NCBI GenBank assembly: GCA_018302765.1 | Contig: JAGVZG010000005.1 | Coordinates: 1-57,608 of the forward strand | Origin: Candidatus Woesearchaeota archaeon | GTDB taxonomy: Archaea; Nanobdellota; Nanobdellia; SCGC-AAA011-G17; GW2011-AR18 | Length of the DNA stretch: 57,608 nt | Reading direction: 5' to 3' | Notes under the pieces: model-generated | Databases searched by the model: none | The model's input: the letters and a program-made list of their open reading frames with translations, nothing else | What the model was told of the DNA's origin: nothing | Shown: positions 6,880-38,272 of the stretch, in pieces | How positions within the stretch are numbered: position 1 is the stretch's first letter | Layout: each line of letters starts with the position of its first letter | Translations under genes and position numbers: made by a program

Positions 6880-7244
6880 AATATTTTTATCATTTCTGAA
6901 GTTTTGCATAATTTTTTATTAAAGAGAAATAGATATTTATTATTAAGTTATAAAAATTTATTCTGCAAAGAACATTAAATGTTATTAATGAAAAAGGAGA
7001 GCTGCCTGAATTATATTATGGTTTTAGTGATATTTCATAATGATAATAGCCCTTTAGGCTGGGTTTAGTCTTTGCTTATAGTTGCTTTAAATTGGTTTAT
7101 ATTTTACAATGTTTATTTTAATCATACAACAACTTAAACAATGAATCTTGTGTTTCTTATATTTAGTAAGAATCATTAATAACAGCTCTTATTATTCTTT
7201 ATTTATTGTATTATTACCAGCAGGCACTATAAATAATAAAATAA

Positions 7245-9665
7245 TTATATATTATTAAACTTGTATCTTCTCATCAAACTGGAATTTGAGACTACAGAAA
7301 CAGAGGAAAAAGCCATTGCTGCAGCAGCTATCATTGGATTTAATAGAAAACCTGTAAATGGATATAGCAATCCGGCAGCTACTGGAATAGAAACAACATT
7401 ATAGACAAAAGCCCAAAACAGATTCTGCTTTATTTTTTTTAATGTGTATTCACTTAGTTTTATTGCTTTTACTACATCTCTTAGGTCATTTTTTACAAGA
7501 ACTATATTTCCTGTTTCTATTGCTATATCTGTTCCTGAGCCTATTGCTATTCCAACATCAGACTGAGCCAGAGCAGGAGCATCATTTATGCCATCGCCAA
7601 CAAAAGCTACCTTTTTTCCTGCTTTTTGCAGCTCTTTAACCTTTTCTGATTTTTCAGACGGTAGAACCTCTGACATTACATTTTTAATAGATAATTCTTT
7701 AGCAATTGCTTCTGCTGTTGTATTATTATCACCTGTAATCATAAAGATCTCTAAATTCATTTTATTTAATTTTTCTATTGTTTCCTTTGCTGTTTCCTTA
7801 ATTGTATCTGCTATTGCTATTAATCCAAGAACTTGTTTATTTGCTGCTATTATTACTGTTGTTTTGCCTTGTTTCTCTAATTTTAGTAATTCTTTCTCTG
7901 CATCTTTTGTCTTTATATTATAGTCTTCAAGAAGCTTTTTTGTGCCAATTAATATTTTCTTATTGCCATATTCTGCGTATATGCCCTTTCCAGATATTGC
8001 CTTAAATTTATGAGTCTTTGGAATTTTTAATTTTCCTGCCTTTTTTCTAATGGCTTCTGCTATTGGGTGCTCTGAGCCTGACTCTGCTGTTGCTGCAATT
8101 TTTAATATTTCTTCTTGTGAAAATCTTGACAGTGATACAATGTTAGTAACTTCTGGTTTGCCTTTTGTTAATGTTCCTGTTTTATCAAATATTATTGTGT
8201 TTATTTTATGAACTTTTTCAAGTGACTCTGCATCTTTGATAAGTATCCCATTTTCAGCTCCCTTGCCAGTTCCCATCATTATTGCTGTAGGAGTAGCAAG
8301 ACCAAGAGCACATGGACAGGCTATTATTAATACTGCAATAAATATCGTCAAGGAAAATACAAATGGTTGTTTTAATATAAATAACCATATTAAAAATGAT
8401 ATTATTGATATTGCAATTACTGCTGGAACAAAATAAGCAGATATCTGGTCTGCAATTTTCTGTATTGGAGCCTTGCTTGACTGTGCTTGTTCTACTAATT
8501 TTATTATTTGTGACAATACAGTATCTTTGCCTACTTTTGTTGTCCTGATTTTTAAAAAACCATTTTTATTTATTGTTGCTCCTACTACCTTATCATGTGT
8601 TTTTTTATTTACAGGCATTGACTCACCAGTAACCATTGATTCATCTACTGAAGCTTCTCCGCTTATTATTATTCCATCAACTGGAATTTTTTCTCCTGGC
8701 CTTACTACAAGAATATCTCCAACTTTTACATCGTCTATTGAAATTTCCTGTTCTTTCTCATCTACTAATATTTTTGCTGTTTTTGGCTGCAGGCCAATTA
8801 ATTTTTTTATTGATTCTGAAGTTCTGCCTTTTGCTTTTGCTTCCAGGTATTTTCCCAAAACTATTAATGTTATTATAACTGCTGCAGTATCATAATAAGG
8901 AGATCCACTGAATATTTCAGGAAAGAAAGTTACCAGTGCACTATAGATATATGCTGCTGATGTTCCTATAGCTATTAGTGTATCCATATTTGCTGTTTTA
9001 TTTTTTAATGCAAAATATGTTCCTTTGTAGAATTTGTAGCCTATGAGAAACTGTATTGGTGTTGCCAAAACTAGAAGCAATAAATTAGGTAGTATCTCGC
9101 GCTTTAGATGTATGTTAAATATTTCAGGGAAAGACAATACTAATATTGGTATTGTTATAATTATGCTTATTATTGTATGATTTCTTAGTTTTTTAATCTC
9201 TTTTTCCCTTACTTCTTTTTCTTTGTCTTGGGAAGACTCCTCTAATGGTTCATAGCCTGCAGATTTAATTATTGATTTTATTTCTGATGGCCTTATTTTT
9301 TCATTATTAAAATATACTACTGCTTTTGATGTTGAGAAATTCAAATCTGCTTTTTTTATTCCTTCCTTATTTAAAAGTGCTTTTTCAACAATGCCTGCAC
9401 AGTGAGGTGAATCCATTCCCATAACTTTAAGTGTTAATTTTGATTCATTATGGTCTATTACTTTGTAGCCTGTTTTTTCTATTGTTTCTTTTATTTTACT
9501 TTCACTTACTGCTTTAGCATCATATTCTACTGTTGCTTTTTCAGATGCAAAATTTACAGAAGCATTTTCTATACCACTTAATTTTTCCAGGTTTTTTTCT
9601 ATTGTATTTGCACAGGAAGCGCAGTGCATTCCAGAGATTTGAAGATCTACTCTTTTTTTCTGCAT
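7245..9665 (-). CDS. copA: Copper-translocating P1B-type ATPase with two HMA domains
   Basis: GMHCASC, a second degenerate HMA (GMDSPHC), TGES, CPC, DKTGT, GDGIND, YN and MAFSS motifs. Confidence 0.95.
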
Positions 9666-9799
9666 TAATTTGTCTTGTACTTGTTAGTATTTAACCTTTG
9701 CTCTGTCTGGATACGTTCTGAACAACTGTTTTAGTAATAAATATGCATAAAAGTATTTAAATCTTGTTACATGTTTTGTTGCTTTGGTGCCGTTTAGTC

Positions 9800-10732
9800 T
9801 TATTTTTTGTAATTCCTAATCTGATCAATTATCAAATGGAGCATTTCTGAAACATATTTTTTATAATTTCCTTTATCTGCAATTTCTAAGCATTTGTAAT
9901 AATCTTCTCTTTTTTCAAAGGGAATAAAAAACATTGGATATTCTTTTTTCATTAAAATAAAATTCATTATAGTTCTTGCGGTTCTTCCATTTCCATCTTC
10001 AAAAGGGTGTATCCAAGCCAGTTTATGGTGCAATATAACTGCAAGTTCAAAAGGATGCAATTTAATTTTATTAGCAGAATACCATTTATATAAATTTGAT
10101 AAATGTTTTTTAACTTCCTTTTCAGTTGGTGGTGTATGTTTTGATCCAAATATCTGAACCTCAAAGAATCTTATTCTTCCAGGATAGGTTACTCCTGTAT
10201 TTTTTGTCAATATATTATTTACTTTAGTTATTAACTTTTGATTGAAGTCTTCTTTGTAATTTTTTATAAAATCTAGGCATTCTTTTCCGTTTATAGCTTC
10301 ATTATAATCTTCAGCTCTTATTCCTGTTGGAATTACTTTGTCTTTTAATATTAATGCTGTTTGTCTTAAGGTTAACCTATTTCCTTCTATCGCATTACTA
10401 TGATATGTAAATCTTATAACAAAATCTTCATTTAGCTTTTCTTTTAAACTTTTTGGAGTTTTCTTCAACCATTCTTTAAATCCTTCTTTTAGGTCTTCTA
10501 GAACTTCTGCATCTTCATCTGTTAAATAATAATAATTATATTCTTTTTTTATTTTTAGTTCTTTTATTTTGTTTTCTATTTCTTTAGCATATTTTTCTAT
10601 TTCTTCTTTGGAAGGTTTTATATCTCCCATATATATTCTAATCTTTTTCCATTTATTTATAGAAATACGTACATTTTTAGTTAAATAGTAATATTCTTTG
10701 TTATTTCTCTTTATTTTTTCCATATAAGTCAT
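9800..10732 (-). CDS. Fic-family protein (class II, inhibitory helix) with extra N-terminal beta-rich domain
   Basis: HPFEDGNGRTAR catalytic motif; SNAIEG inhibitory motif. Confidence 0.9.
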   Translation of the reverse strand: MTYMEKIKRNNKEYYYLTKNVRISINKWKKIRIYMGDIKPSKEEIEKYAKEIENKIKELKIKKEYNYYYLTDEDAEVLEDLKEGFKEWLKKTPKSLKEKLNEDFVIRFTYHSNAIEGNRLTLRQTALILKDKVIPTGIRAEDYNEAINGKECLDFIKNYKEDFNQKLITKVNNILTKNTGVTYPGRIRFFEVQIFGSKHTPPTEKEVKKHLSNLYKWYSANKIKLHPFELAVILHHKLAWIHPFEDGNGRTARTIMNFILMKKEYPMFFIPFEKREDYYKCLEIADKGNYKKYVSEMLHLIIDQIRNYKK

Positions 10733-10996: not shown

Positions 10997-11248
10997 TTAG
11001 TTCATATGATCATCCAAAACTTTCATTAAATAAGTTACTAAAAATTCGTACATAACCTTGCAGTCTTCTGATAAAGGCCTTGCTTTCATATCATAATGGT
11101 AATGGGCACATTTGCTTAACATTATCATCATCATCTTATTTCTTATTTCAGGAAATAATCCATAAATAATCTGTTTTATGTTTTCTATATTTCTAAGTGT
11201 TGTTTTCTCCTTTCGTTCAAGTATCTTTCTTTGTATGTTGACATACAT
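10997..11248 (-). CDS. Hypothetical protein, possibly truncated
   Basis: Strong SD (AAAGGAGAGGAT-ATG); 83 aa; 3' end overlaps a convergent short ORF. Confidence 0.5.
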   Translation of the reverse strand: MYVNIQRKILERKEKTTLRNIENIKQIIYGLFPEIRNKMMMIMLSKCAHYHYDMKARPLSEDCKVMYEFLVTYLMKVLDDHMN

Positions 11249-11365: not shown

Positions 11366-11484
11366 GCCGCGATCGCCTAATCTGGTATGGCACCAGAAAT
11401 AATTATAGTTATTGGTGAACCTGGAAATAAATACCAATTAGCTGGACCCGAAAGGGTATCTCGGTTCAAATCCGGGTCGCGGCG
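11366..11484 (+). tRNA. tRNA-Ser(GGA) with two introns (30/31 at 11397-11419; 37/38 at 11427-11439)
   Basis: Acceptor GCCGCGA/TCGCGGC + discriminator G; T-arm CTCGG-TTCAAAT-CCGGG; long variable arm ACCC-GAAA-GGGT; after splicing, anticodon arm CCAGC-CTGGAAA-GCTGG; intron 1 forms a strict BHB (CACC/GGTG helix, AATAA/TTATT hairpin); no encoded CCA. Confidence 0.9.
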
Positions 11485-11510
11485 TTGGAAAGTAGGTTCA
11501 AAGCCGAGCA
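11474..11510 (+). repeat. attL: 13-bp core GGGTCGCGGCGTT (11474-11486) plus 18-bp arm (11493-11510)
   Basis: Core repeated exactly at 35233-35245; arm TAGGTTCAAAGCCGAGCA is a 16/18 inverted match to 35203-35220. Confidence 0.85.
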
Positions 11511-11551: not shown

Positions 11552-12766
11552 ATGAATCCAATACACTATACAGAAACAATATACCACTATTCTGAAAAAG
11601 TAGAAAAAGAAAAGATTTCTATTAAAATCAATAAAAATATCTCTGAAAGAAATAAGGAGTTTATACTTCAATTTTGTAGAGACAGACAAATTAAAAAGGG
11701 TTTTAGCAGTGCCAGAATACTTAAATTACTAAATAAGTTAAAGCTTATTGCTTATTTGTTTAAAGTAGATTTTAATAAAGCAACTAAAGAAGATATAGAT
11801 ACTTTTTTAGAAATAATAACAACAAACCAAAAATTATCTAAAGCAACAAAAGTAGACTATTTCATTATTCTTAAAGTGTTCTATAAATGGCTACTAGGGG
11901 AAGATAAAAAATATCCATCATTAGTTGACGATATTAAAACCACTTTAAAAAAGAAAGAAAGACTTCCAAGCGAAATACTAACTGAAGAAGAAGTAAATAT
12001 TCTAATAAACTCTACAATTAATATAAGAGATAAAGCTGTAATCTCAATTCTTAGTGATAGTGGTTGTAGAGTTGGAGAATTAATAAGTCTTAGATTAAGA
12101 GACATTAAATTTAATGAAAATGATAACACTATACGATTGCTTATAGAAACTGGTAAAACTGGAGGAAGATCTTTAATATTAATTCCATCAGTTCCATTTT
12201 TATCTAATTATATAAACTCTATACCTAATGAAATAAAAAATAATCCAAATAATTTTTTATTTCTAAGAATGAATCAAAATTTTTATTTTAACGAGCAAAT
12301 GACTTACCCAAGTGTTAGGGCTTTATTAAAAAAAACAGGCAAAAGAGCCAACATTCAAAAAGGTGTTAATCCTCATGCATTTCGTAGACATTCAGCCACC
12401 ACTTCGTCTTCTTTTATGACAGATACTCAATTGATGTTAAGATATGGCTGGAGCAGAAGAAATACTGTAGATAGTTATACTTTTATGAACCCAACACAAG
12501 CTGATCAAGCTTATATGTCAAAATATGGAAAACAGACTCTTGAATCTAAGGAGAGTAAACTAATGCCATTAAGATGCTCTTGTGGAACTTTTAATCCTTT
12601 AGATAGTATTTGTGTTAATTGTGGAAAACCAAATAGTTTAAAAGTCGTAATAAAAAAGGATAATGAAGAACAGCAAGCACTACAAAAATTAAAAGAAGCT
12701 GTGCTAATTTTATCTGAAAATATTAATGATGAGGCTAGAATTAAATTAGCTGAAATACTAAAATAA
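11552..12766 (+). CDS. Tyrosine recombinase/integrase with C-terminal zinc ribbon
   Basis: Catalytic R (SGCRVGEL), K (GKTG), HxxR (HAFRR), W (YGW), Y (DSY); CSC...CVNC; SD AAGGAGG; starts 67 nt after the tRNA. Confidence 0.95.
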   Translation: MNPIHYTETIYHYSEKVEKEKISIKINKNISERNKEFILQFCRDRQIKKGFSSARILKLLNKLKLIAYLFKVDFNKATKEDIDTFLEIITTNQKLSKATKVDYFIILKVFYKWLLGEDKKYPSLVDDIKTTLKKKERLPSEILTEEEVNILINSTINIRDKAVISILSDSGCRVGELISLRLRDIKFNENDNTIRLLIETGKTGGRSLILIPSVPFLSNYINSIPNEIKNNPNNFLFLRMNQNFYFNEQMTYPSVRALLKKTGKRANIQKGVNPHAFRRHSATTSSSFMTDTQLMLRYGWSRRNTVDSYTFMNPTQADQAYMSKYGKQTLESKESKLMPLRCSCGTFNPLDSICVNCGKPNSLKVVIKKDNEEQQALQKLKEAVLILSENINDEARIKLAEILK

Positions 12767-35202: not shown

Positions 35203-35245
35203 TGTTCGGCTTTAAACCTAACTTCTTTCGCTGGGTCGCGGCGTT
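35203..35245 (+). repeat. attR: inverted arm (35203-35220) plus 13-bp core (35233-35245)
   Basis: TGTTCGGCTTTAAACCTA and GGGTCGCGGCGTT match the attL arm and core. Confidence 0.85.
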
Positions 35246-35340
35246 TTCATACTTTTTCCGCTGGAGAACAAAACGCTGATTTAAGCTTTCTCTAAGCATT
35301 TTATTATGTTTTAACGACTTTTGGACTTTTCCTGCAATTC

Positions 35341-35414
35341 ACCTACAGGTCGCCTTCCGGTCAGTTCGACGCCGGTTCGCTCAGTTTTTGTTAATGAACC
35401 GGCAATCTCTAGAG
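35341..35414. other. GC-rich hairpin cluster of unknown function
   Basis: ACCT/AGGT, GTCG/CGAC, GCCGGTTC (35371-35378)/GAACCGGC (35396-35403), palindrome CTCTAGAG. Confidence 0.4.
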
Positions 35415-35532
35415 GTAAATAGTTCTAAACATTTAAGAAACAATTTTATTTCTTATCTGACTTTCTAAAAAGAATTGAATTATCGCCCATTTATAGTTCT
35501 AATAAAGTTCACTTAAGCTTTTTTAGAACTTC

Positions 35533-35572
35533 ATAGTAACCATAAAGCTTATATAGTTTCATATGTTACTAT
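35533..35572. promoter_or_regulatory. Inverted-repeat operator straddling the TATA box of the MNT gene
   Basis: ATAGTAAC/GTTACTAT perfect 8-bp IR; 24-nt spacer containing CTTATATA. Confidence 0.5.
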
Positions 35573-35576
35573 AACT

Positions 35577-36164
35577 ATGAAATCAAAGAATCAAATGTTT
35601 AAAAGTACTAAAGTAGATGTACTTGAAAGAACTTATGATAAGTGTTTAGTGTGGTTTTATGCAAATCCCAGCAGGAGAATTGGTTTAACTGAACTTGCAA
35701 AATTAATTCAGTCTTCAAAAACAGCTACAAAACAAGTTGTTGAGGGTTTAATAAATGAGAATTTTTTACACAGAGAAATTGCGGGGAAGTCTTGGATAAT
35801 TTATTGTGATCCAAGGCATGTTTATTTAATAACAAGGAAGATGCCTTATCATTTAAGTAAAATATACCAATCAGGAGTTATAGAAGCTGTTCGTAAAGCT
35901 GTTCCTCAGGCAAGATCTATTATTCTTTTTGGTAGTTATAGAAATGGGACTGATATTGAGACAAGTGACATTGATATTGCTGTTGAAACTTTAGACAATA
36001 ACGATTTAGAAATTAGGCAACTTGGAATTATTGGAGAACTTGGCTACAGAAAAGACGTTGTTGTAAATATTCACATATTTTCTAGGAATAAAATAGATTT
36101 AAACCTCTTTGCAAATATTGCTAATGGTATAATCTTAGATGGTTTTCTTGAGGTAAGACCATGA
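35577..36164 (+). CDS. HTH-fused minimal nucleotidyltransferase (MNT antitoxin-like)
   Basis: N-terminal wHTH (IGLTELAKLI); LFGSY...SDIDIAV. Confidence 0.85.
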   Translation: MKSKNQMFKSTKVDVLERTYDKCLVWFYANPSRRIGLTELAKLIQSSKTATKQVVEGLINENFLHREIAGKSWIIYCDPRHVYLITRKMPYHLSKIYQSGVIEAVRKAVPQARSIILFGSYRNGTDIETSDIDIAVETLDNNDLEIRQLGIIGELGYRKDVVVNIHIFSRNKIDLNLFANIANGIILDGFLEVRP

Positions 36165-36562
36165 ATCAGAGAATTAAACATTCAGATAGAAAAAATGCAT
36201 TGAGTATACTTTTAGCTGCTGAAAGGGAGATGAATTATACTTTAAAATTACAGATTACTGATGAATCTGCATTTAATATTATTAGAAATGTTTACGAATG
36301 TTTTAGAATGCTTGGAGATGCAAGTCTTATTTCTAAAGGGGTTGTCTCACAAGACCATATAGAACAGATAAAAGAATTAGAAAAAATGCCTGTAAAAACT
36401 GAAAGGCCTATAGGAGTAATTGATAATATTAGAAAACTAAGGCACAATATAAATTATTATGGCTATATTCCTTCTAAGGCTGAAGCTGAAGATGCACTTT
36501 CAATTGCAAAAACTTGTTTTAATCCCTTAATAGATTTTTTAAAAAATAATGTTACAAAATAA
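36161..36562 (+). CDS. HEPN toxin-like partner of MNT
   Basis: ATGA overlap with MNT; helical; RHNINY (Rx4Y variant). Confidence 0.7.
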   Translation: MNQRIKHSDRKNALSILLAAEREMNYTLKLQITDESAFNIIRNVYECFRMLGDASLISKGVVSQDHIEQIKELEKMPVKTERPIGVIDNIRKLRHNINYYGYIPSKAEAEDALSIAKTCFNPLIDFLKNNVTK

Positions 36563-36594
36563 AATTATTTACTTTATTATAAGTTGATTATCTC

Positions 36595-36634
36595 GTTTCA
36601 ATCTTCTTAGCGGCGTTTTCATACTTGAACCGAG
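36595..36634 (+). repeat. Degenerate att-like site 2
   Basis: GTTTCAAT-CTTCTTA-GCGGCG-TTTTCATAC-TTGAACCGAG; the last 10 nt are the exact reverse complement of tRNA T-arm CTCGGTTCAA (11460-11469). Confidence 0.65.
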
Positions 36635-36719
36635 TTAACTCTATTTTGCCTTTATACCTGTGTAAAGTCTTAATTTTAGTAATATTTAATCAATAAGACT
36701 TCATATAAAATGTAGATAC

Positions 36720-37616
36720 CTATTTATACTGTTTTTTGTATTGAGATAATAAAAATCTAATTGTTGGATCAATATTTCCTGTTTTATCAAATATTCTAAG
36801 AATTTTATAATAACTTTTTCTGTCTTTTAATTGAATATTAATTGGAGGATAATTATTTGTAATTAATACAAAATTAAGTAGTAATCTGCCAACTCTTCCG
36901 TTTCCATCTTGAAAAGGATGAATTTCTTCAAATTTATTGTGTAATAATCCTGCTAATACTAATACTGGATATTTTTTATAGTGCTTATTATACCACTTAA
37001 TTAATTCTAATAATAATTTTTCTACATCTTTTGCTGGTGCTCCCTGATGAATTATATTGCCTAAACTATCACGAATGATAACTCTAACATTACGAAATTT
37101 TCCTGCAAAATGTTTTGTTCTATTAAAACATAAATAATGTAATTTTTTGATTAAATCTAAAGAAAGTTCTTTTTTATCAATAGATTTCAAATAATTAATT
37201 GCATTTGCTACTTCAATAGTTTCTATTTCGTCTTGATTTTTTGGATTTTCTTTTTTATCTATTAATGAATTTACTTCATTATACTTTACTGTAGATCCTT
37301 CTATTGCATTTGTATTATATGTAAACTGTTTTGTAAATTTATCCCAATCAATTTCAAAATGTTCAATATTTATATTTTTTTTAAGAACATTGTATTTTAA
37401 AACTTCTGTATCTGATAATTCAAAGTTATTTTCTTTCTTTTCTTTCATTTGTGATAAAATCAATTGTTCAGCTCTTTTTTTTAGTTCTTTTAGTTTATTT
37501 TCATTTAAATTTGAACCCAAATAACGAGAAATTCTTTTTACTTTATCTTGAACTCTGAATGTCTGTACTAAATAGTACTTCTTTTTTTTACCTTTTTTTC
37601 TTATTTCAATGAACAT
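36720..37616 (-). CDS. Fic-family protein (class II), paralogue of 9800-10732
   Basis: HPFQDGNGRVGR; TNAIEG; same N-terminal YYL...R...YLG domain. Confidence 0.9.
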   Translation of the reverse strand: MFIEIRKKGKKKKYYLVQTFRVQDKVKRISRYLGSNLNENKLKELKKRAEQLILSQMKEKKENNFELSDTEVLKYNVLKKNINIEHFEIDWDKFTKQFTYNTNAIEGSTVKYNEVNSLIDKKENPKNQDEIETIEVANAINYLKSIDKKELSLDLIKKLHYLCFNRTKHFAGKFRNVRVIIRDSLGNIIHQGAPAKDVEKLLLELIKWYNKHYKKYPVLVLAGLLHNKFEEIHPFQDGNGRVGRLLLNFVLITNNYPPINIQLKDRKSYYKILRIFDKTGNIDPTIRFLLSQYKKQYK

Positions 37617-37627
37617 ACTATGTTAAA

Positions 37628-37668
37628 GGTGTCTACATTTATATATTTTTGCATATCTAGTAGACACC
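37628..37668. promoter_or_regulatory. Inverted-repeat operator straddling the TATA box of the second Fic gene
   Basis: GGTGTCTAC/GTAGACACC perfect 9-bp IR with 23-nt spacer. Confidence 0.55.
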
Positions 37669-37689
37669 CCATTATTACATCTCAGAACC

Positions 37690-37720
37690 ATTCAGTTTTG
37701 CGGCGCCATTTTCTCTGAAT
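37690..37720 (+). repeat. att-like site 3: GCGGCGCCA (tRNA 3' end plus CCA) inside an ATTCAG/CTGAAT inverted repeat
   Basis: GCGGCGCCA at 37700-37708. Confidence 0.35.
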
Positions 37721-37900
37721 CAAGCTAGCTGCTTAACTTTTTTAAAACCATGTTGGATTTTTAGAACCAAATGGCAATAGATAAAGTATTTTGTATTAGT
37801 TTCAATATTCTTAGCGGCAATTTATTTAATTTATTATTTAATGGTAGTAACAAATGGAAAGATTTAAATATTCTTATATTTTATTAAATTTTGAAGTAAA

Positions 37901-38272
37901 ATGAAAAGCAAAAGGAATGACGGATATCAATCTGCAGGATTATTTAGTAGAGAATCTCTGGGAGATGCCTTTTATAAAATTTTTAAGGGAATACTTCCAG
38001 GATTTGAAGGATTAAAAACTGATGACGTTCTTGCTTTGAAAGAAGGTAAAAAAGATACTTTTACACTTTATTTTTTTGGTCCAGATTGATATAGTACAAG
38101 AGATTTAACTTCTTTTAGATTAAGCGCTGGATCAATTGCTGCAAAGTTAGGAGATTTAGAAAATAGAATTAGTAGTACAAAAGTTTTTAATGATCTTAAA
38201 GGCATCAGAGTTGTAAAAACCACTTACAGCAAAGAAGATTTTCCAGCTTACATAATGTTTGAAAAATATTAA
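37901..38272 (+). pseudogene. 123-codon hypothetical ORF split by an in-frame TGA (38087-38089)
   Basis: The frame stays open for 60 more codons, ending at TAA 38270-38272. Confidence 0.5.

Follow-up and report, generated by a model that had tools for sequence, protein, structure and literature searches.

Displaced 3' ends of a tRNA-Ser(GGA) gene between small toxin-type gene units in a probable accretion island of a Candidatus Woesearchaeota archaeon

We have analysed a stretch of 57,608 nucleotides (nt) of contig JAGVZG010000005.1 from Candidatus Woesearchaeota archaeon, a groundwater archaeon of the DPANN group with a tiny genome of 1.02 Mb (G000). The whole stretch is called the window in the following. 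Positions 35233-37823 carry two small gene units, one with an MNT-HEPN gene pair and one with a Fic gene, which lie between four repeat sites. The repeats are non-random and are copies of the 3' end of a tRNA-Ser(GGA) gene located at 11366-11484. The region is probably the old, distal part of a composite island at this tRNA 3' end, where elements would have accumulated in tandem at a tRNA hot spot and then decayed to relics that are flanked by att sites, lack an integrase and resemble cis-mobilizable elements (CIMEs).

The array region was compared with 19 strain-level contigs from 17 other samples. These are 99.7-100% identical to the region and collinear with it, and therefore the region is genuine and no assembly artefact. 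Comparisons over larger distances included a congener (G001), a genome from another genus (G012) and a distant metagenome contig of 202 kb (L155); labels of this kind are our own.

The tRNA-Ser(GGA) gene and its displaced ends

The tRNA gene, the element integrated next to it (E1) and the repeat sites are located as follows.

11366-11484, + strand: tRNA-Ser(GGA) gene with two introns, the integration target; read by eye, 12 orthologues align
11474-11486, + strand: attL core of E1, consisting of the last 11 nt of the tRNA and 2 further nt; 11-mer match
11485-35232: E1, an integrated element of 23.7 kb resembling an integrative and conjugative element (ICE); 13-bp direct repeat at both ends
35233-35257, + strand: site 1, the attR of E1, with 11 nt of the tRNA end and a 14-nt trailer; exact match of a 25-nt probe
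36589-36626, + strand: site 2, 27 nt of T arm and acceptor strand in decayed copy, with 11 nt of the trailer; gapped alignment
36625-36634, - strand: inverted copy of the start of the T arm; exact 10-mer after site 2
37678-37708, + strand: site 3, a decayed 28-nt 3' part of the tRNA, then CCA; 18/28 ungapped matches, and the G001 homologue
37799-37818, + strand: site 4, a copy of the left half of site 2; 19/20 identical

An acceptor stem, D and T arms and a long variable arm can be recognised in the tRNA gene. It was read by eye, and searches of the window with ARAGORN (introns on and off) and Rfam (at the gathering score) reported no tRNA. The anticodon loop CCTGGAA is kept in 12 of the 12 aligned orthologues, and the anticodon is therefore GGA (Ser). 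Two variable insertions, one on either side of this loop, are introns according to the alignment of the orthologues, and in some of these (G012 and G002) the T loop contains a third intron. Orthologues that look truncated because the homology stops in the T loop were considered as sites of insertion; this was rejected, as they have T-loop introns instead. A 14-nt trailer, TTTTCATACTTTTT, is found directly 3' of the intact tRNA in G001 and L155, and G012 has a one-mismatch version of it at the same place, so that the trailer belongs to the tRNA gene unit. Contig C18 of G001 (L021, approximately positions 8736-9483, - strand) carries 35 nt copied from the tRNA 5' end. After these comes an open reading frame (ORF) of 225 amino acids (aa) for a LAGLIDADG homing endonuclease, and this ORF continues into the beginning of the complete tRNA-Ser(GGA) gene.

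The motif GCGGC occurs on the + strand at 35238, 36610, 37700 and 37814, in all four cases between genes. The window holds 11 copies on both strands, four of which are those of the array, and arithmetic from shuffled sequences gives an expectation of about 0.15 copies per 2.6 kb of one strand. Sites 1 and 2 have an exact 17-mer in common at a distance of 1372 bp (35238 and 36610), which is found nowhere else in the 1.02-Mb genome when 2 mismatches are allowed. Sites 2 and 4, at a distance of 1204 bp (36595 and 37799), are identical in 19 of 20 positions (22/25), and with up to 2 mismatches allowed the genome contains no second pair of this kind. Shuffle expectations for the repeats are 0.01-0.04. 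Both site 2 and site 4 show the spacing TTCAA-N8-GCGGC, where the tRNA has N9. The inverted 10-mer from the start of the T arm is exact and occurs twice in the window, with 0.01 expected, and site 3 carries CCA. All of these patterns had been described in an earlier note on this DNA, and they were borne out.

A genome-wide local-alignment scan was carried out with the tRNA 3' end and trailer as probe. The best matches after tRNA-Ser(GGA) itself are sites 1 and 2, which outscore all other real tRNAs. Site 2, the third-best match in the genome after the tRNA and site 1, aligns over a span of 38 nt with 32 identities and one gap over 39 probe positions (score 23.5). The 11-nt core GGGTCGCGGCG has two occurrences in the genome only, the tRNA end and 35233, in agreement with the earlier assignment of 35233 as the attR of an integrase element. 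An origin of the repeats in the tRNA, as att-type sites derived from its 3' end, was likewise proposed in the earlier note and is upheld here, because sites 1 and 2 are the top non-tRNA matches, because the trailer is part of the tRNA unit and because the integrase family of E1 is found after tRNA ends.

The two remaining sites are weaker. Site 3 by itself has a score of 9, which is reached by 3% of windows across the genome and is not significant; it is recognised as a tRNA end only because its homologue in G001 has the same 28-nt stretch and then retains the trailer. Site 4 resembles site 2 and has no direct similarity to the tRNA. At sites 2-4 the retained core amounts to 5-8 nt of the 11-13 nt used by E1. 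The 3' ends of all other detected tRNAs in G000 were also screened against the genome and no displaced copies were found. One candidate displaced end, on contig C6, was rejected, being a real tRNA-Arg with a T-loop intron.

The earlier note had combined the inverted T-arm sequence with the tRNA into a symmetric attB. This is contradicted by the relatives: the inverted 10-mer is missing from the G001 counterpart of site 2 and from bare attB sites, and the sites that are unoccupied or differently occupied in G001, G012 and L155 do without it. Inversion driven by an integrase between tRNA copies is known (PMC5495485) and, by analogy, could be the source of the inverted T arm at site 2 as well as of an inverted core copy observed in G006.

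Gene units, the proximal element and related loci

Besides the sites, the following features were assigned in the two units and in E1.

35244-35426, + strand: conserved non-coding leader of the first unit; 91% identity to the stretch after the G001 tRNA
35577-36164, + strand: winged helix-turn-helix nucleotidyltransferase of MNT type, putative antitoxin; Pfam NTP_transf_2 and Polbeta
36161-36562, + strand: probable HEPN protein of 133 aa, partner of the MNT gene; similar to HEPN clusters in the language model, score 0.96
36720-37616, - strand: Fic-family gene with intact motif HPFQDGNGRVGR; Pfam Fic with 70.9 bits, cut-off 24
37628-37668: palindrome upstream of Fic, likely operator; inverted 10-mers, conserved upstream of the G012 homologue
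11552-12766, + strand: tyrosine integrase of E1; Pfam Phage_integrase with 66.8 bits

The only ORFs of at least 60 aa in 35233-37823 are the MNT gene, the HEPN-like gene and the Fic gene, and integrase or transfer genes are absent. The description of both units in the earlier note as bounded by the sites, without integrase and with their own upstream regions stands, in that the upstream DNA travels with each gene elsewhere.

In the MNT-HEPN unit the leader is conserved to 91% between G000 and G001, where the adjoining genes reach approximately 80%. Its GC content is relatively high, and folding of its + strand as RNA yields a z-score of -2.4. Rfam contains nothing that matches it, no support came from covariation, and the stretch was not found outside the genus. 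The MNT protein is 80.5% identical to the G001 protein at the same position, reaches 32.9 with the MntA model (below the cut-off of 60) and has 1546 relatives in DPANN archaea. Its 133-aa partner, which has no sequence match in Pfam, NCBIfam or PDB, is always paired with an MNT gene and resembles HEPN clusters in the language model; it is a probable HEPN protein. The region upstream of the MNT gene accompanies the gene in other genomes, and in another species a TrmB-type gene is adjacent to the MNT-HEPN pair.

The Fic/Doc signature HxFx(D/E)GNGRxxR is present in the translation of the Fic gene as HPFQDGNGRVGR. The gene with its promoter has 74% nt identity to a Fic gene located 5' of the tRNA in G012, and from its inverted repeats and their conservation the palindrome at 37628-37668 is a likely operator. 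In one strain-level assembly the gene calls imply that Fic is apparently broken. Fic genes flank tRNA-Ser(GGA), on either side, in 7 genomes. A second Fic gene of the window (9800-10732, - strand) is situated just 5' of the tRNA, and its nt identities of 83% and 80% to genes in G005 and G017, from two other genera, suggest a recent transfer. Next to this gene, also 5' of the tRNA, an 83-aa ORF (10997-11248) is related to the N-terminal ORF of an integrase found 5' of the G001 tRNA; it appears to be a remnant, and a second hot spot may exist on this side of the tRNA.

The cargo of E1 comprises the integrase, a NikA-like protein, a type III restriction-modification pair, a radical SAM/SPASM protein and a DUF2779 nuclease. 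Furthermore, it has transfer-type genes, namely a VirB4/TraC-like ATPase of 1036 aa, a TrbL-like protein and a pilin of the type IV secretion system (T4SS). The integrase gene starts 68 nt from the tRNA end and is intact after integration. From its matches the protein is predicted to be a Xer-like, tRNA-targeting tyrosine recombinase: the best NCBIfam match is XerA-like (106.5 bits, below the cut-off of 220), homologues were found in 48 of 240 genomes of the order, and at most of the homologue loci that were fetched the gene lies 70-130 nt 3' of a tRNA end.

The place of the array differs between relatives. G012 represents a bare site with the tRNA, the trailer, 150 bp and the gene of a PD-(D/E)XK nuclease, and G002 has a phosphoketolase and an acetate kinase at this place. 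In G001 two units and an ORF are found between the tRNA and the PD-(D/E)XK gene block. The order after the G001 tRNA is the leader (91% identity to 35233-35426), a TrmB-type regulator, a small ORF, an IS200 transposase and MNT-HEPN. Next come a decayed tRNA end of 28 nt, accompanied by 71 nt of flank that is repeated, an opposite-strand Fic gene and a third decayed end with trailer. The MNT-HEPN unit of G001 thus occupies the same place and is 2 kb larger than in the window. Between G000 and G001 this unit has 80% nt and 80-81% aa identity, and the flanking chromosome has 70-83% aa identity. Since the divergence equals that of the flanking chromosome and the place is the same, the unit is older than the separation of G000 and G001 and has kept its position. 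An exact scan with the 17-mer over genome and metagenome contigs gave almost only chance matches, and only the G001 contig and L155 proved to be related.

The PD-(D/E)XK block, which is located 3' of the array in G001, G002 and G012, adjoins tRNA-Ser(CGA) in G000 (contig C5, approximately 85700-91600). This position suggests that tRNA-Ser loci have been rearranged with one another.

In the family the 11-nt core recurs in exact copy a few kb downstream of tRNA-Ser(GGA) and on the same strand; control patterns are absent there. G013 has three exact copies and a degenerate one, G022 and G024 have two each, and in G101 an exact copy is accompanied by one that deviates at a single position. The units bounded by these cores, present in four to five other genomes, are 0.9-4.9 kb long and lack an integrase, with cargo such as Fic or ParE-like genes or cation exchangers. 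The tRNA homology begins at the same nucleotide in each of five junctions, which come from four genera, and this indicates that the crossover site is defined and that the ends are not those of random deletions. In the first unit of G013 an arm like that of E1 follows the tRNA with no integrase, and in G004 and G020 only an N-terminal integrase fragment follows it. On contig C6 of G013 (L027, oriented positions 7100-10000) a 108-nt P arm with the core is found twice and a post-core flank of 39-48 nt three times; two of the flank copies bracket a single Fic gene, and inverted repeats flank the core region. tRNA-Ser(GGA) is thus a recurrent landing site in at least 5 genera, used by two integrase families and strikingly often associated with Fic-type genes.

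Two further observations concern other parts of the window. An ORF at 37901-38272 is interrupted by one in-frame TGA (38087-38089), after which the frame stays open up to a TAA, identically in all strain-level contigs; some public gene calls read through the TGA (123 aa), and the ORF is either a pseudogene or recoded. At 18-78 of the window a 61-nt stretch recurs at the ends of 5 other G000 contigs and in G012, and is probably a repeated element that breaks assemblies.

Accretion and decay compared with other explanations

The explanation we prefer is tandem accretion followed by decay. A tyrosine integrase targeting the tRNA would recombine the attP of an element with the tRNA 3' end. The incoming element would supply a new tRNA 3' end, and the old end with its trailer would come to lie at the far junction. 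If the site were used repeatedly, elements would be stacked with displaced tRNA ends between them. The distal units would subsequently have lost their integration and transfer genes, leaving self-regulated toxin-type modules (MNT-HEPN and Fic) between decaying att scars. The unit next to the tRNA is E1, an intact element of ICE-like type that has its integrase.

The order of events, the former larger size of the small units and their present immobility are what we infer from several comparisons. The units are read as relics because no variant exists among the 19 strain-level contigs, because MNT-HEPN was inherited vertically and because the G001 unit is larger and the TrmB-MNT-HEPN adjacency occurs elsewhere. 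The same reading is favoured by the loss of the integrase at the site in relatives, by the Fic gene apparently broken in one assembly, by homologues which share no ends with the units and by the partial cores. Derivation by deletion from formerly large elements, which the earlier note had set against its own model of captured cassettes, is thereby favoured in part: the larger G001 unit, the TrmB-MNT-HEPN adjacency and the loss or truncation of the integrase in G013, G004 and G020 agree with it, and no parent element was found.

Several observations weigh against accretion and decay. An ORF and Pfam scan made no integrase pseudogene visible inside the small units of the window. The Fic units of G000 and G001 have homologous boundaries but are oriented differently and diverge in sequence (36% aa identity). 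A strict order with the newest element next to the tRNA cannot explain this distal Fic unit, for which an internal site, a recombinational replacement or two differential deletions are needed. The right flank of the array has no synteny to G001, G002 or G012, and synteny does not fix where the island ends on the right in the window, because the PD-(D/E)XK gene block lies on another G000 contig. Finally, the pilin block, at the right end of E1 in G000, is found 5' of the tRNA in G001 beside an unrelated integrase, and because of this counterpart E1 may be composite. For the same reason, namely the homologous pilin block and the unrelated integrase on the 5' side of its tRNA, G001 was withdrawn as a simple empty site for E1.

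Among the alternatives, the one that survives best is that the small units are still mobilisable cassettes, archaeal CIMEs at a kind of cassette dock, where an integrase acting in trans, e.g. that at 11552-12766, gains, loses or swaps toxin or defence units; the units might also leave together with a neighbouring conjugative element. We regard this as possible but unlikely. It is in line with the different Fic genes that G000 and G001 have between homologous boundaries, on the distal side of a common unit, and with the integrase-less units of 0.9-2.7 kb with exact 11-nt cores in several genera; some of these units carry Fic or ParE-like genes. A resident integrase with a matching core, GGGTCGCGGCG, is available, Fic genes flank the tRNA in the 7 genomes mentioned, and cis-mobilisation of such units is established in bacteria (PMC5704250). 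Cassettes of this kind should show gain, loss or reordering, as the earlier note had expected from a comparison of the locus across strains. This expectation held in part: the 19 near-identical contigs have no indel and no variant in presence or order, and only the congener G001 has a different Fic gene between the homologous boundaries. Furthermore, the MNT-HEPN unit has been inherited in place since the G001 split, and sites 2-4 have kept only part of the E1 core (5-8 of 11-13 nt). The earlier note had also proposed to look for the same cassettes and ends at other tRNA-Ser loci. Homologues of MNT-HEPN and of Fic in other genomes have gene and promoter in common and never the unit ends, and three contexts of MNT-HEPN homologues (65-77% identity) show ordinary chromosomal neighbours without tRNA-derived ends.

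In a stronger form, the tRNA-Ser(GGA) 3' end would be a live docking array in these DPANN archaea, with integrase-less Fic, MNT-HEPN and ParE-like mini-cassettes that are swapped by resident integrases on full or partial sites and perhaps exported with a conjugative element. It would be an archaeal, tRNA-based functional analogue of the integron. This broader proposal is rather less probable than mobilisable units as such, and we consider it doubtful.

An origin by processes other than serial integration is improbable. The tRNA 3' end and trailer might have been copied by segmental duplication or gene conversion, by recombination between tRNA copies borne on elements that had inserted 5' of the tRNA, or by a duplication of tRNA pieces linked to a homing endonuclease. 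The 71-nt repeat of G001 lies mostly downstream of the tRNA and exceeds the typical length of a core, G001 has the 35-nt tRNA 5' fragment and the LAGLIDADG gene just before the full tRNA, and the Fic gene on the - strand is followed by a full tRNA in G012 and by a 28-nt 3' remnant of the tRNA in the window. However, in four genera five independent junctions have their tRNA homology starting at one and the same 11-nt boundary, which speaks for a defined crossover site, and an integrase of a tRNA-targeting family is present at the attL.

Chance matches in AT-rich intergenic DNA are hardly credible even though site 3 alone does no better than 3% of genome windows and site 4 does not resemble the tRNA directly, given that the repeat pairs are unique in 1 Mb, that shuffles predict 0.01-0.04 and that G001 has kept the boundaries; chance is refuted for sites 1 and 2 by genome-wide uniqueness, the alignment scan and the conservation in G001.

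Relation to known systems and significance

The array is a case of a known process, found here in Woesearchaeota. [quoted passage not shown] With CIMEs and tandem tRNA islands the array has in common the direct repeats of a tRNA 3' end, the absence of integrase and transfer genes from the unit and the tandem arrangement with an integrase element at the same site. The earlier note had presented the locus as a candidate for an undescribed system. This is not supported, as integrase-less units flanked by att sites in tandem with an intact element are known from bacteria as CIMEs (PMC5704250; PMC3146451).

There is a close likeness to the streptococcal CIMEs and accretion arrays (ICESt1/CIME and the tRNA-Lys islands of S. 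agalactiae; PMC5704250), where units without integrase and transfer genes, but with attL and attR, adjoin an intact element in a tandem at the target gene's 3' end. In contrast to these, the array has a DPANN host, a tRNA-Ser(GGA) target with several introns, units of only about 1.1-1.4 kb and solely toxin-type modules. The tandem ssrA islands of Dehalococcoides (PMC3146451) likewise show direct repeats of a small-RNA 3' end downstream, and some of the islands lack integration modules; their authors suggest that such islands are cis-mobilisable or fixed (PMC3146451). Those islands use serine recombinases and a 20-bp repeat and carry reductive dehalogenases, whereas the present one has a tyrosine integrase, cores of 11-28 nt plus trailer and cargo resembling toxin-antitoxin systems. 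In the tycheposon tRNA islands of Prochlorococcus (bioRxiv 10.1101/2020.12.28.424599) successive integrations also push older elements outward and leave partial tRNAs between them; degenerate remnants and additional partial tRNAs are dispersed over the island. Tycheposons are bacterial, their excision has been seen in culture and they have no conjugation genes, whereas the proximal element described here has T4SS genes.

Tyrosine integrases with a tRNA as attB are known from archaeal elements as well, i.e. pTN3 of Thermococcus (PMC5495485) and the arrays of Thaumarchaeota (PMC6563490), and arrays formed through re-use of an att site have been noted in archaea (PMC6563490). The present element differs from these in that the integrase gene stays intact on integration. 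No description of such arrays or integration hot spots in Woesearchaeota was found in the literature searched.

The earlier name 'integron-like' had to be abandoned. Integrons share with the array the ordered small gene units, the repeats resembling recombination sites and a tyrosine recombinase gene nearby, and membership fails for the integrase, the attC sites and the way the cassettes are organised. The E1 integrase has 53 bits with the integron-integrase model TIGR02249, far below the cut-off of 265, and is located 22.5 kb from site 1 at the far end of the 23.7-kb E1, so that there is no IntI-type integrase; nor are there an attI, a Pc promoter or attC hairpins. Single-stranded DNA folds of the four sites on both strands have z-scores from -1.67 to +1.13 and include no attC-like hairpin. 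The units are neither co-oriented nor promoterless, having their own promoters and mixed orientation with Fic on the opposite strand, and the repeats are derived from a tRNA.

A known process thus explains the odd repeat pattern and is documented here for Woesearchaeota, within the DPANN archaea. Displaced tRNA ends can be used in annotation to delimit islands in tiny genomes, even where tRNA finders miss genes with several introns. If the doubtful reading as live cassettes were true, the locus would offer a testable archaeal counterpart of cassette capture.

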